Source: a virus
Taxonomy: Duplodnaviria > Heunggongvirae > Uroviricota > Caudoviricetes
Direction: 5' to 3' (one strand)
IMG/VR virus record: IMGVR_UViG_2537561709_000011
DNA length: 8,832 bases
The position numbers were made by a program. Below are positions 6,001 to 8,832 of the stretch, one piece after another. Position 1 is the stretch's first letter. The number at the start of each line of letters is the position of its first letter.

Positions 6001-8832
6001 GGCGGATATTGGGGGTTCAGGTATGGCGATGTTTTCCCCGCAGTACAACATCGAGATCAATAACGATGGCACGAACGGGCAGATAGGTCCGGCTGCCCTG
6101 AAGGCGGTTTATGACCTCGGGAAAAAAGCGGCAGCGGACTTTATGCAACAGCAGGCCCGTGATGGTGGTCGGTTAAGTGGAGCATATCGGTAATGGAGAC
6201 GTTTCACTGGAAAGTGCGCCCGGATATGAATGTGTATGAGCGTCGTGAGGGCGCTGGTGATGGTGTTCGTCGAAAGGTGGCGCGTTATGGCCTGCCTGGT
6301 CATTCTGTTGTGGTGCGTGACGGTGAGGGCCGGAACGGTGCAATTGACGGCGAATGTATACGCATCAATGCTACAGATGTGGTGCTGGTGGAGGGGCAAT
6401 AAAAAACCCTGAAAGATTTCTCCGGGTGCTCCAGTTGCACGTGGCAGAAATCCTTCAGGGTCAGCCGTAACGGGCCTCTGTACAGAGGGCTCCAGTTGCC
6501 CAGAGATGAGCACCCGCTACAGCCTGTTGTGATAAGCCGCTTTACAGTGAGCTCCAGTTGCTCAAAGAGGCGCGTTTTTATCACAACCTGACCGCGATAA
6601 CCCGCTGTACAGAGGGCTTCAATTGCCCAAAGAGGCGCATTCTTATCGCGGCATGACGAAATCACCGTGATGTTTTCGTCGTTCACTCATCCCGATGTGT
6701 GGGAGATGCACCGGAATGAGTGCCGAAAAGCCGCTGGCTGGCTTCATGCAGTCGGACTCAGTTGCCCGGGGCGAACACCATCAACGGCCTTTTGGTGGTG
6801 ATTATAGCGAATCGCGATAATTGAGCAAATACGGTGATGAGATGCGTATCACGGTAGCGCTAAATCGTCGCCTGCATCACTGAAGCTGTAATTTCTCCAT
6901 TCATCCTGCGGATTAATCCCCATCTCTTTCAGCGTTCTGTCTGCGGCCTTTTTCACATCGCCAAAGGTGACGAACTGCTCAGGCATACGACGGGTTTTAC
7001 TGATGCATATCGCCCGACGTCTGGCAGCTTCCTCGCGTTCACTGTCCGTTTCTGCGTGAAGAAGAACCTCAGCCCATCGGGTCGCCGCACGTCGCCATAA
7101 ACCGCGCTCCTCAAGTTTCTGTGCCACGCTGTCCGTCATCACTGGCTTTACCTCCGGCTGATTACTGCTGACTGTTTTTCTGCTTCATCTGCTCCAGTCT
7201 CCGCTTCAGTAGTTCGCTGGCTACTGATTTATCTTCTTCCGTGACTTCACCGCAAGGTTGCCCGTTCAGTCCATACCGTGCGCCGCCAGCGACAATGGCT
7301 TTCAGGTATCGCGTCGTGTGGATGTATGAGGTTAATGCGCCACGTAATACGCCATGACCAATCGCCAGTTCCCGCGCCTTCGCGTCCTGCAACATATCGT
7401 GTATCACGCCAGCCTTAAGGGGTTTTATATTCTCTGCCCCAAACAGTTCAGGCCAGTACTCAGCCAGTCGGTTTATCCTCCTGCGGTTTTTTCGCTGCCG
7501 CTTTGTCATGTGCTGCCACGGTATGCGCCGTGATGGTTTACGTGTGGTCTGGTCCTGTTGTGTGGTCTGCTGGTTCATGTTGTGCTCCTGTCATTCAGAA
7601 CGGAATATCGTCAGAGAACGGGTCATCACCTCCCGCTGGTGGCTGATTCCCCCGTGTTCCGGTCTGTCGTTTTGCTCTTTCCAGTGCTTCGGTCGCCTTC
7701 CCCTGTTGCCCCCGCTTCCCGCCAGGACGCGCCGAACGGGCACTGATTACGCTGTCAGCGATAACCTGCCAGCCCTGCCGTATTTCTCCGTTCTGTCCGG
7801 TCCACTGACTGATCTGCATGTTACCCGCCACGCTGATAAGGTCGCCTTTTTCATGTCTCGCCAGCGCGTCGGCCTGCTTACCAAATGCCAGGACTGATAG
7901 CCATAACGTCGCCTGTCCGTCCTGTGCCTGACTGCATGGCAAAGATACCGCCATACGCGCCAGCGTCATCGGTGTGCCCTTGCTGGTCTGTTTTACCTGC
8001 GGGTCGTCCACCAGCCGTCCGTAAGCTGCAATCTGTGCTGTCATGGTCTGCGCTCCTTGTTCCGGTACTCTTGGATAATACCCATTGTCATATCGAATAA
8101 ATCACAACGCCGAATTACAGTTTTCTCGGGTACAGCGGCACGATGAAAGTGACGCCCGATCGCATCACGGACTACAAAGCACCATCGGCAGAAGAGGCTG
8201 CCGTCGCCAGCCAGGCCGCGAAGCGTCCGCCGGTAGTCAACTATCCGGGGGAAGGTTTCCGGGAAATGACAAAGGCACAGTGGGCCGCCCTGCCCCGGGA
8301 CTGTAAGGCCGTGCGCAGTGTGGCAGAAGCAGAAGACCACGGGGCATACCGCTACCGCCGCACAATGGACAATAATTTCCGTCTGGTGAATGTGTATATC
8401 ACCGACATGAAAATTACGGAAATCCCACAGAAATAAGGTATATCCCCCCGGGAAATCCCCGGGGGATGACGGAGATAATGACATGCACAGTCAGTTAAAA
8501 GAACGTATCCGGCTGATGCGCGCAAGGCTGGATAACGCCGCGCCGGTTGCTGAAATCCGGGCTGAATCTCAGCTTTTTGTGACTCCTGCCCCGGTCTGTG
8601 ATCGCCTGGTGACGCTGGCGGAGATCAGCAACCGTGATCACATTCTGGAACCCTCTGCCGGCACCGGGGCCATACTGCGGGCGATTCGGGATACCGCACC
8701 GGAGGCCATGTGTGATGCGGTGGAAATCAACAGCGGGCTGGTCCGGTATCTGCGGGAAAATTTTAACGGTGTCAGGGTTCAGTGTGGCGACTTCATGGAA
8801 TGGCAGCCGGTGCAGTATTACAGCCGGGTTAT

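Follow-up and report, generated by a model that had tools for sequence, protein, structure and literature searches.

FinO-domain proteins are known as plasmid-borne or chromosomal RNA chaperones that serve one or many partners. The closest described systems are FinO/FinP/traJ of F-like plasmids and FopA/Inc RNA/repZ of IncI plasmids. The locus analyzed here resembles both: a small FinO-domain protein of a mobile element, with conserved pocket and N-cap residues, is encoded beside a predicted structured RNA that would have a terminator hairpin, a U-tail, a YUNR-type loop and a complementary mRNA. Unlike in those systems, the presumed target mRNA lies on another element, a Shiga-toxin (Stx) phage, in the gene called L0134 in phage 933W; five hairpins stand in tandem and correspond to several target alleles, whereas each plasmid encodes a single antisense RNA in cis; and the carrier is a chromosomal satellite instead of a plasmid.

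Satellite small RNAs can act on helper phages, as SviR of the Vibrio cholerae PLE does on ICP1, and CI RNA is the immunity system of satellite P4. The role proposed here is of the same kind, with a satellite small RNA serving cross-regulation between satellite and phage or the satellite's own immunity. It differs from SviR and CI RNA in that the hairpin units are near-copies of a phage element in several allelic versions, that a FinO-domain gene lies immediately upstream, and that the annotation of the islands lists none of sid, psu and delta, with which P4 alters capsid size and transactivates its helper. A survey of E. cloacae PICIs, with the same architecture of integrase, AlpA, primase, Icd, Ash and AntA/AntB, found PerC-family and ProQ/FinO-like genes as accessory cargo (PMC13612085). 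In that survey, however, the genes are listed singly, as putative virulence or host-interaction cargo, with neither a fixed SSB-FinO-PerC order after the replicase nor an RNA array.

Small structured RNAs of Stx-phage origin, some diverged from phage sequences, are also described from EHEC and EPEC prophages (AsxR, AgvB, the EcOnc series, Esr41, StxS, 24B_1 and PasA-D). They map near Q/PR'/stx or holin, between lom and vb_24B_43, or in SpLE1, and the accessible parts of their descriptions place none inside L0134 or the island. We considered whether the array or its phage counterpart is one of these RNAs. 24B_1 was rejected for its position in the lom-vb_24B_43 intergenic region and the Pas RNAs for theirs near Q, holin or RusA, and the accessible portion of the EcOnc table has no entry at the L0134 site.

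The window, i.e., the whole stretch of DNA analyzed (8,832 nucleotides), is the entire 8.8-kb scaffold KB004216.1 of the draft assembly GCA_000316725.2. Comparison with other genomes indicates that it is made of three unrelated pieces of O157 DNA joined in the draft scaffold (Table 1). The left junction, linking the tail genes to the island segment, was found in no complete genome, and the ORF that crosses it occurs in one contig of the whole collection; for the ORF across the right junction there is no record anywhere. A near-identity search with the right part of the window against the phage collection gave no match, and its plasmid-like genes (a SAM methyltransferase and DUF3560) belong to a separate pO157 fragment. 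The initial annotation had doubted that the genes studied here form a lambdoid operon, and rightly so, as the lambdoid tail genes at 1-6240 are joined to them only in the draft scaffold. The likeness to a plasmid leading region that it had also seen does not survive: such modules (ssb-psiB-ardA with ssDNA promoters) sit beside oriT of a conjugative plasmid with psiB and anti-restriction genes, whereas the native neighbours here are satellite genes. The middle segment is native DNA that contains both operon and array, so their adjacency is genuine. The case illustrates that gene context on short draft scaffolds can be an assembly artefact.

Table 1. Segments, junctions, genes and predicted RNA elements of the window
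Feature	Position	Strand	Basis
O157 lambdoid prophage tail segment	1-6240		
Left chimeric junction, prophage tail/island, 15-nt overlap	6226..6240	.	
Island segment (native home of operon and array)	6226-8106		
u0, terminal hairpin then UUUUUU, predicted intrinsic terminator, nearest phage type C	6397..6463	-	inverted repeat I2; fold
u1, core like phage type B, outer stem differs	6462..6526	-	sequence match; folds
u2, hairpin GUUGUGAUAA...UUAUCACAAC, loosely type-A-like	6526..6587	-	inverted repeat I7; folds
u3, hairpin CCGCGATAA...TTATCGCGG, loop AAUUGAA, nearest phage type A	6592..6652	-	identity matrix
Pair of small hairpins separating u5 from u3, without relation to the phage site	6655..6722	-	inverted repeats I8, I5; fold
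u5, long imperfect hairpin then UUUUCGG, nearest phage type D	6723..6795	-	fold
Sigma-70 promoter-like element TTGCTC-N16-TATAAT	6801..6828	-	sequence reading
PerC-family small protein, 97 aa (GTG 7142) or 96 aa (ATG 7139)	6849..7142	-	Pfam, RefSeq
ProQ/FinO-domain protein, 138 aa	7162..7578	-	Pfam, PDB sequence matches
SSB, 149 aa, acidic C-terminal tip ...PFSDDIPF	7595..8044	-	Pfam, PHROG, RefSeq
Right chimeric junction, island/pO157, 5-nt overlap	8102..8106	.	
pO157 segment	8102-8832		

The SSB, FinO-domain and PerC-family genes form one minus-strand operon. All three ORFs named in the initial annotation (ssb-like, FinO/ProQ and PerC-like) were found where it had placed them, and their identities are borne out by Pfam scores well above the curated cut-offs. 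The SSB matches PF00436 with 56.2 bits (cut-off 26, 4e-15, residues 5-99) and PHROG 44, 'single strand DNA binding protein', with 9e-40, and is identical to RefSeq WP_000126696.1; it has both the OB-fold domain and the acidic C-terminal protein-interaction tip of the D-D-D-I-P-F type. In the second protein, a basic extension at the N-terminus leads into the FinO domain (residues ~30-136), which matches PF04352 with 90.7 bits (cut-off 27, 7e-26) over profile positions 4-108 of 109. By sequence it also matches the PDB entries for the ProQ N-terminal domain (5nb9, 1e-12), RocC (7rgu, 3e-12) and FinO (1dvo, 5e-10). The draft annotation gives this protein as 77 aa only. The PerC-family protein matches PF06069 with 101.7 bits (cut-off 22.6, 3e-29) over positions 1-88 of 90 and corresponds to RefSeq WP_000132491.1, whose start is the ATG.

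The spacing is tight. Gaps of 16 and 20 nt had been claimed; the former, between SSB and FinO (7579-7594), is exact, while the gap between FinO and PerC measures 19 nt if PerC starts at the GTG and 22 nt if it starts at the ATG. The strong Shine-Dalgarno sequences noted earlier are likewise present, with AAGGAG, AGGAG and GGAGG ahead of the three starts. In its native setting the operon has a fourth gene, of 149 aa, which shares 4 nt with the start of ssb. The window has a chimeric ORF in its place, and the true 5' end and promoter of the operon therefore lie beyond the window.

The native setting of the operon is a chromosomal phage-satellite island of pathogenic E. coli, of the PICI/P4-like kind, with genes for an integrase, an AlpA-type HTH regulator, Icd, Ash and a D5_N primase, and with the SSB-FinO-PerC triad immediately after the replicase/primase gene. 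The RefSeq tables of five such islands (L001, L002, L004, L068 and L069) list a tyrosine integrase, HTH regulators, Icd, Ash and a D5_N/DUF5906 or DUF927 primase, and no capsid or tail genes; Phage_AlpA is present in another (L075). This is the combination expected of a PICI: integrase, AlpA-type regulator and primase/replicase together in an island of ~10-20 kb on the chromosome, without a full virion gene set. The satellite island was found in O157:H7 (e.g., E32511), O103:H2 (e.g., 12009), O111:H8 and other STEC lineages.

A search of the FinO alignment against genome contigs gave 3 loci only, and the wider gene context was therefore drawn from contigs encoding the proteins. The replicase-SSB-FinO-PerC order recurs in islands of E. 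coli, E. albertii and Salmonella, and the co-occurrence of the three genes across genomes, which the initial annotation had left to be checked, is thus wide. The array is confined to one E. coli island lineage and was found in 116 of 5426 complete genomes, together with all three genes in each; the PerC gene adjoins every array among the matches listed. All 124 arrays are chromosomal, as are 2972 of the 2978 matches to a query of array plus genes. Behind perC, the array is absent from E. albertii, E. ruysiae, Salmonella and the other E. coli islands examined. To the question of whether the array always accompanies the FinO-like gene, the answer is therefore one-sided: array-bearing genomes have the triad, but the triad often stands without an array. 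This implies that the FinO-domain protein cannot depend on the array in general and must have another or more general RNA partner.

Such a distribution raises the possibility that the triad serves the satellite in replication or establishment, while the array is an independent captured small-RNA gene of Stx phages. The SSB would then coat single-stranded island DNA, the FinO-domain protein would act on some other island RNA, e.g., a replication-control RNA or a P4 CI-type immunity RNA, and the array would use host ProQ or Hfq, or no chaperone. The triad follows the replicase directly in many array-free islands, one locus has SSB-FinO without PerC, the array has a conserved promoter-like element of its own, and the Salmonella island carries iteron-like repeats instead of hairpins behind perC, consistent with an origin. 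We nevertheless regard this arrangement as rather unlikely, given that the array is always linked to the triad (116 genomes), that it ends in the type of structure recognized by FinO domains, and that no other candidate RNA partner was found in this analysis.

The structured RNA reported beside the operon was recovered as a region directly downstream on the minus strand (6395-6850), whose fold is much more stable than those of shuffled sequences (z = -6.9). Within it lies an array of ~400 nt, predicted to comprise a promoter-like element and five long hairpin units, the last of which is an intrinsic terminator. The promoter-like element precedes the first hairpin, ending 5-6 nt before its outermost predicted pair and 12 nt before its GCCGTTGATGG arm. 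With only 3/6 matches in the -35 hexamer, the element scores under the scan threshold; the exact 28-mer is nonetheless kept in 6/6 other island loci, which represent five further array variants with 88-95% identity to the array of the window.

We compared the units with phage sequences and found that, as far as identity can tell, u5, u3 and u0 are close matches to different alleles of one phage site, with 73-93% identity to allele types D, A and C, respectively. For u3, the match to the site in Stx-phage L0134/LPD38 genes is 88-92% over 61 nt. The terminal unit u0 is 79% identical to type C1 (type C having the apical stem GUGC/GCAC) and folds with -33.4 kcal/mol; its hairpin is followed by a U-run on the minus strand but not on the plus strand. 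The likeness of u1 to type B is limited to a 38-nt core, which is 94.7% identical to the LPD38 allele of strain S19-651, and its outer stem pairs on the minus strand only, through G-U pairs (-31.4 versus -21.8 kcal/mol). No close phage counterpart of u2 appeared in the identity matrix; its apical stem shows a compensatory change between island variants, from GAGC/GCUC to GGGC/GCCC. Among the array units, only u0 has the 3' U-tail required by FinO domains, and u5 has a weak one.

Other identities for the array were considered. A search of the whole window, array included, against Rfam at E <= 1 returned no family. A protein repeat, suggested by a PLYRGLQLPK-like motif on the plus strand, was rejected, as the units are 62 and 65 nt apart, in different frames and with stop codons. 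A CRISPR was also rejected, as the whole unit, core and arms, matches the phage site, the arms pair with each other, and the island has no cas genes.

The phage site spans ~65 nt immediately behind the MuF_C domain, within the giant polyvalent-protein gene that Stx-converting phages carry. The plus strand of the window corresponds to the sense strand of this gene. On its antisense strand the site looks like a small RNA gene, with a promoter-like element (TTGCGA-17-TATTTT) 9 nt before the stem, a predicted YUNR-loop hairpin, and a U-rich tail after the stem in all phage alleles. In a divergent phage, the same post-MuF_C position holds a 12/12 consensus promoter, TTGACA-17-TATAAT, that ends 6 nt before the hairpin. 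In 933W-type alleles, the A-rich run and the hexamers of the promoter-like element double as codons for conserved residues, and constraint on the protein can therefore not be told fully apart from constraint on an RNA gene there.

Comparison of the alleles indicates that the phage site is under structural selection. The outer stems of the five allele types are unrelated, yet each is self-complementary; the apical stem occurs as GGGC/GCCC, AGGC/GCCU and GUGC/GCAC; and the RNAalifold consensus has double compensatory changes in 10 of 12 pairs. Because the outer stems of the allele types are in different registers, a single consensus structure for all units was only partly useful, and per-type folds were used. 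Summed over 14 phage alleles, the antisense strand folds better than the sense strand (-426 versus -376 kcal/mol), with 37 versus 13 G-U pairs, and the 18 island units likewise fold better on the strand corresponding to the minus strand of the window (-515 versus -449 kcal/mol). We also asked whether the phage hairpin outranks every other local structure of its gene in stability; it does not, reaching -27.6 kcal/mol, against -39.9 for the best and a gene mean of -17.5 (sd 5.1). The loop sequence is AACUGGA in most island units and AAUUGGA in 933W-type phages, which leaves a central C-A mismatch in a predicted loop-loop kiss with 933W-type alleles.

Could the units act as DNA? They might be homology patches for recombination between the island and Stx phages, leading to cointegrates or transduction, or sites for DNA enzymes of packaging or priming, and the neighbouring genes do encode an SSB and a primase. 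Moreover, u3 of the window is 87% identical to A2 and that of island L083 93% identical to the 933W allele (A1), while for u5 the identity is 87% to D1 in the window and 93% to D3 in island L004. Different island variants thus resemble different phage alleles, which suggests repeated DNA exchange with phages. A function as DNA is nevertheless highly improbable in our view. The G-U strand asymmetry, the restriction of promoter-like elements, U-tails and YUNR loop to one strand, and the compensatory stem changes are all against it; patches of 60 nt at 85-93% identity are poor recombination substrates; and the phage site is far from the terminase genes in 933W.

A passive role was also weighed, in which the hairpins are mere 3'-end structures (terminators or exonuclease blocks) and the phage likeness is a functionless by-product of recombination. 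The array does lie in the 3' untranslated region of the operon with a terminator at its end, and other islands do without it. Against this, at least three and probably four allele types of the phage are represented among the five tandem units, whose loops are conserved; compensatory changes separate the island variants, and the promoter-like element is invariant, so that we judge such passivity quite improbable.

We then examined the FinO-domain protein as a binder of the array RNA. In RocC, Tyr87, Arg97 and Gly52 form the 3'-nucleotide pocket and Arg75 belongs to the N-cap, and together they grip the 3' end and hairpin of a terminator (PMC9674577). In the HMMER alignment to 7rgu, G57, R79, Y91 and R101 of the island protein align with RocC Gly52, Arg75, Tyr87 and Arg97. 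Y91, R101 and G57 are invariant in 14 homologues, of which 12 have Arg and one has Lys at the position of R79. As the residues of the RocC grip are kept and the array ends in such a terminator, it is plausible that the island protein binds the array RNA. The terminator hairpin u0 lies ~400 nt downstream of the operon, and internal array units would require processing to become FinO ligands. RNA-like structured units complementary to phage L0134 mRNA adjoin a FinO-domain gene, most relatives of the triad being without an array. In the phages themselves, no FinO homologue was found in Stx phages as a partner for the phage hairpin; the only phage homologues are in Sodalis phiSG1 and one Cronobacter phage.

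Our best explanation, which we put forward tentatively, is that the satellite operon and the array act together, with an array RNA antisense to Stx-phage L0134 that controls the phage with the help of FinO. The island region would be made as a minus-strand RNA from its own promoter, by read-through from perC, or both. An RNA from this strand is antisense to L0134 mRNA, here probably that of several Stx-phage variants. The FinO-domain protein would bind the terminator hairpin and 3' U-tail of the island RNA, and possibly also the antisense RNA of the phage itself. It would then stabilize the RNA and speed its pairing with the phage mRNA, as in FinO-FinP/traJ and FopA-Inc/repZ. In effect, the satellite would control a late gene of Stx phages, whether these are resident or incoming, either interfering with them or exploiting them as helpers. 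For the SSB the likeliest role is in island replication; PerC would most likely activate transcription of island, helper-phage or LEE genes, activation of the LEE1 (ler) promoter being an activity expected of the PerC/Pch family. Neither seems to take part in the RNA step. A more specific version pictures the array as a multi-allelic antisense cassette, in which tandem mimics of the Stx-phage antisense RNA are updated by gene conversion and, with their own FinO-domain chaperone, silence or time L0134. In this full form we consider it unlikely.

An RNA of the same polarity might instead work as a mimic or decoy that competes for L0134 mRNA or titrates what would otherwise bind the phage antisense RNA, such as host ProQ, an RNase or a factor of the phage. 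The best-folding strand and the architecture of loop and stem are common to island units and phage sites, and several allelic types stand in tandem in the array; no binding factor is known, and we find this improbable. It is hard to separate from antisense action because an RNA of that polarity is always complementary to L0134 mRNA.

Which genomes carry both partners also bears on the antisense explanation. Each of the 11 listed genomes with an array shows more matching places than a single array, which is the median, and this implies that an L0134-type site is carried there as well; such a site occurs in ~6% of the remaining genomes. The co-occurrence of array and site rests on these 11 genomes, as the co-occurrence query at E <= 1e-40 left out short phage-site matches and counts arrays only, and it is confounded by EHEC ancestry.

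Taken together, the main new fact is that the array units are, by identity and predicted fold, copies of an element inside the Stx-phage gene L0134, and these matches suggest an RNA-based link between the island and toxin phages. The finding points to a putative, so far undescribed antisense small-RNA gene inside this conserved late gene of Shiga-toxin phages. If the proposed mechanism is true, a satellite FinO gene together with an RNA aimed at another mobile element would be a new use of the family, and the device itself a so far undescribed kind of RNA means by which a satellite interferes with phages or controls its helpers. The island may modulate Stx phages in STEC lineages, and an element that alters Stx-phage late expression or yield would be medically relevant, because Stx-phage induction drives toxin release and the spread of toxin genes.

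The window and scaffold KB004216.1 (8832 bp; draft assembly GCA_000316725.2) are one and the same sequence, which falls into three parts. Nucleotides 1-6240 match O157:H7 lambdoid prophages in their tail region (100% identity), nucleotides 6226-8106 match an island on the chromosomes of O103:H2 and O157:H7 strains (99.9-100%), and nucleotides 8102-8832, with a SAM methyltransferase and a DUF3560 gene, match pO157 (100%). We found neither junction among complete E. coli genomes (5426), plasmids (72,556) or phage records (50,697). The left-junction ORF is encoded by one contig on record, KB004216.1, and no record was found for the right-junction ORF; both are artefacts. 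The window is probably a misassembly of three unrelated pieces of O157 DNA. Because the junctions are confined to this scaffold, its lambdoid look on the left and its plasmid leading-region look on the right are most likely assembly artefacts, and since the middle segment contains operon and hairpin array alike, their adjacency is native. The initial annotation had not recognised the operon as a standard lambdoid one, which holds, the tail genes being a separate O157:H7 prophage piece. It had also likened the operon to plasmid leading-region modules, which fails, the right-hand genes being a pO157 fragment. SAM methyltransferase and DUF3560 genes are typical of plasmid leading regions, and they probably prompted the analogy.

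The three coupled minus-strand genes themselves (ssb, FinO/ProQ, PerC) were borne out by the ORFs, the Pfam scores, the short gaps and the start motifs. The ORFs are separated by 16 nt and then 19 nt (22 nt to RefSeq's ATG of the third gene), and their starts are preceded by the Shine-Dalgarno-like sequences AAGGAG, AGGAG and GGAGG. The SSB ends in a canonical ...DDIPF tip, and PHROGs also gave phage-family matches for the ProQ/FinO and PerC proteins. The draft annotation gives the FinO-domain gene only 77 aa (7162-7395); according to RefSeq and the ORF map, it encodes 138 aa from 7578, behind AGGAG.

Features of the window
Feature	Position	Strand	Remarks
Junction ORF, 69 aa	6193-6402	+	Start of lambda M-like tail gene fused to the C-terminal end of the 128-aa island ORF that converges on the array
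Left junction	6226-6240		15-nt overlap, prophage tail segment/island segment
u0 hairpin	6463-6397	-	Followed by UUUUUU; intrinsic terminator for minus strand only; matches phage type C, 73-81% identity
u1 hairpin	6526-6462	-	Matches type B, 94.7% over 38-nt core only
u2 hairpin	6587-6526	-	Loosely A-like only
u3 hairpin	6652-6592	-	Matches type A, 82-93% identity
Two small hairpins	6722-6655	-	Unrelated to the units
u5 hairpin	6795-6723	-	Matches type D, 81-93% identity
Promoter-like TTGCTC-N16-TATAAT	6828-6801	-	First element in the array region
PerC-family protein	6849-7142	-	97 aa; Pfam PerC 101.7 bits (cut-off 22.6)
ProQ/FinO-domain protein	7162-7578	-	138 aa; Pfam ProQ/FinO 90.7 bits (cut-off 27)
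SSB	7595-8044	-	149 aa; Pfam SSB 56.2 bits (cut-off 26); PHROGs concurs
Junction ORF, 147 aa	8041-8484	-	pO157 sequence fused to end of island gene upstream of ssb
Right junction	8102-8106		5-nt overlap, island segment/pO157 segment
Class I SAM-dependent methyltransferase (part)	within 8102-8832	-	pO157 fragment
DUF3560 protein	8143-8436	+	pO157 fragment

In O103:H2 12009 and O157:H7 E32511, the island lies between yicC and dinD. Its genes run from a tyrosine integrase, an HTH regulator, an AntA/AntB antirepressor, Ash, an Icd-like gene and small ORFs to a D5_N/DUF5906 primase, followed by an ORF of 149 aa that overlaps the start of ssb, by SSB, ProQ/FinO, PerC and the array, and then by an ORF of 128 aa in convergent orientation, two additional PerC paralogues and a Q-family antiterminator. 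Variants occupy a second chromosomal site beside ETT2 remnants, where a DUF927 replicase replaces the primase. By its gene content, the island has the architecture of a PICI/P4-like phage satellite. PerC and ProQ/FinO-like genes were reported as accessory cargo of such PICIs in an E. cloacae survey (2026; PMC13612085). The triad operon itself belongs to a class already known, namely accessory or replication cargo of satellites, annotated at family level. The conserved 128-aa ORF (11717-12103, plus strand, in island locus L001; its 3' part is window 6226-6402) had no Pfam or PHROG match. It converges on the array with its stop at the array terminator, and any transcript that ran beyond this ORF would be antisense to the array RNA. 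Downstream of the array, at 8584-8976 and 11161-11632 (both minus strand), L001 also carries the lambdoid Q-family antiterminator (PF06530, 5e-54) and the two PerC paralogues; the Q homologue could act on Stx-phage late promoters or operons.

Recurring gene orders place the triad, as a fixed module, straight after the satellite replicase. Of the 108 cluster representatives of the FinO-domain protein, nearly all come from E. coli; the others are from Citrobacter, Salmonella and E. marmotae. The order is SSB-FinO-PerC in E. albertii, DUF4222-DUF927-SSB-ProQ-PerC in Salmonella enterica (53% identity; Ash and Bro-N upstream), AlpA...D5_N-SSB-ProQ-PerC in a further E. coli island (58% identity) and FinO-PerC in E. 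ruysiae. One metagenomic locus has AAA_25-SSB-ProQ followed by a Terminase_4 small subunit, without PerC, and a 43%-identical FinO relative stands alone in a myovirus-like context. Co-occurrence of the three genes was therefore seen across E. coli, E. albertii and Salmonella islands. The array has a narrower range: all 116 genomes with an array hold the FinO-like gene, but array-less islands hold it too, and the array was absent from the array-less triad relatives examined. In the Salmonella island (L070), the 580-nt gap after perC contains short direct repeats (TGCGCAGTT-type; 7006-7049, 7148-7179) and A-rich runs, not hairpins, and may be the island replication origin.

The folding energy of the 456 nt that follow perC is -188 kcal/mol, compared with -144 ± 6 for shuffles (z = -6.9), and the array had no Rfam counterpart. 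The promoter-like element is identical across all island variants compared, while their arrays are just 88-95% identical. All five units share an apical 4-bp stem and a seven-base loop AAYUGRA, except that the u5 loop in the window has six bases (AACUGA). Between island variants, the apical stems show compensatory changes (u2, GAGC/GCUC to GGGC/GCCC; u1, GGGC/GCCC to UGGC/GCCA). The YUNR motif occurs in the loops on the minus strand only. Of 5426 complete E. coli genomes, 116 have the array, in 124 copies that are all chromosomal; the number with both the array and all three triad genes is the same, and a PerC gene lies beside every copy among the matches listed. Carriers are STEC lineages, including part of O157:H7, O103:H2 and O111:H8. 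The module also occurs on a 56,969-bp contig catalogued as viral (L083, IMG/VR UViG 2740892231_000011; array at 5433-5891).

A sensitive search with the array recovered the islands and, in addition, short hits numbering in the hundreds within LPD38/LPD5-domain genes. The EDL933 match lies within an 8.4-kb gene (2793 aa; Pfam LPD5, LPD1, MuF_C at aa 1750-1839, and LPD38), which is L0134 of phage 933W, at aa ~1843-1865, straight after MuF_C and in the orientation of the window plus strand. The site is present once per genome in 183-186 Stx-converting and related short-tailed phages, none of which has an array; the array motif was found nowhere else within the islands and once only in the right 25 kb of 933W. 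The eleven array-bearing genomes among the matches listed have 2-7 matching places each against a median of one array, and therefore also carry L0134-type sites, which occur in about 6% of the other genomes. This co-occurrence is suggestive but confounded by shared ancestry.

From 59 IMG/VR loci we obtained 17-19 distinct site alleles of four types (A-D), with type E from a more distant phage. Their outer stems are unrelated between types, yet each is self-complementary: GCCGCGAUAA/UUAUCGCGGC in A, AACCCUGACGG/CCAUCAGGGUU in B, GAACCCUGAUGAUC/GAUUAUCAGGGUU in C and AGAGCCGUUGAUGG/CCAUUCAGCGGCU in D. Covariation is also seen in the apical stem; apart from residues L-Q-L, the peptide encoded there is hypervariable. 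An RNAalifold consensus of 21 units showed double compensatory changes in 10 of 12 pairs. The allele nearest to u3 is A2 in the window and A1 in L083, and that nearest to u5 is D1 in the window and D3 in the island locus L004, suggesting continuing exchange with phages. Between the 933W allele and the L083 u3 there is essentially a single change, at a base of the loop (CAATTG to CAACTG).

Folding of the phage site is strand-biased. Summed over 14 alleles, the strand antisense to L0134 reaches -426 kcal/mol with 37 G-U pairs and the sense strand -376 kcal/mol with 13; types C, D and E fold better in antisense by 5-12 kcal/mol per hairpin, and 18 island units give -515 versus -449 kcal/mol in the same direction. 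On the antisense strand, every allele has a -35/-10-like TTGCGA-17-TATTTT ending about 9 nt before the stem, with T, A and the final T of the -10 hexamer kept in all types, and a U-rich run directly after the stem. These motifs share bases with conserved codons in 933W-type phages, so they are not decisive alone. Stronger evidence comes from a divergent IMG/VR phage (L082) with a 2001-aa MuF_C ORF: the site again directly follows MuF_C, and on the strand antisense to this gene a perfect 12/12 sigma-70 consensus, TTGACA-17-TATAAT (10052-10080, minus strand), ends 6 nt before a type-E hairpin (~9975-10045, minus strand) followed by a U-rich run. Given the strand-biased folding, the promoter-like elements, the U-rich runs and the perfect L082 promoter, the phage site is probably a gene for a cis-antisense RNA of ~70 nt, from which the five linked units of the island array would derive. 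The known sRNAs 24B_1 and Pas were ruled out as its identity, and the part of the EcOnc table available to us has no entry for it. Separately, the giant gene of phage locus L003 contains a stronger sense-strand hairpin (~10608-10690, plus strand; -39.9 kcal/mol in a 73-nt window), and several of its antisense windows reach about -35 kcal/mol.

The FinO-domain protein aligns with the ProQ N-terminal domain (5nb9), FinO (1dvo) and RocC (7rgu), the last solved together with the RocR terminator. In RocC, Tyr87, Arg97 and Gly52 form the 3'-terminal nucleotide pocket, and Arg75 lies at the N-cap, which reads the hairpin backbone (PMC9674577). The aligned counterparts Y91, R101 and G57 are invariant in 14 homologues, of which 12 have Arg at the position of R79, the counterpart of Arg75. 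The protein is therefore predicted to be competent for RNA binding, with a terminator hairpin bearing a 3'-OH U-tail as the expected ligand. The 3' tail required by FinO domains is present on u0, weakly on u5 and on no other unit. The chief weakness of coupling the protein to the array is that the array is far younger and less widespread than the triad; in most islands, FinO must therefore have a different partner, and its target could be unrelated to the array.

The best-supported reading is a FinOP-like system working across two mobile elements. The island would make a multi-hairpin RNA with the polarity of the phage antisense RNA and hence able to pair with L0134 mRNA from several phage variants. 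Its terminator hairpin and tail would be bound by the FinO-domain protein, which would protect the RNA and promote pairing. Through such pairing, the satellite would control a polyvalent protein that Stx phages make late and probably deliver with the virion. Anatomy, homology, covariation and linkage are observed, whereas transcription, binding, pairing and any phenotype are inferred. Against this reading, the commonest island loop, AACUGGA, has one central mismatch to 933W-type loops. Less likely, the array RNA could be a decoy, the units could work at the DNA level, or the hairpins could be passive 3' structures. The SSB fits island replication, and the PerC-family protein is probably a transcription activator. 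The initial finding of the operon beside a structured RNA stands and is richer than first described, but its genomic context had been misread owing to the chimeric scaffold. A FinO gene coupled to a multi-allelic array of Stx-phage hairpin mimics would represent a new form of antisense-RNA/FinO system.
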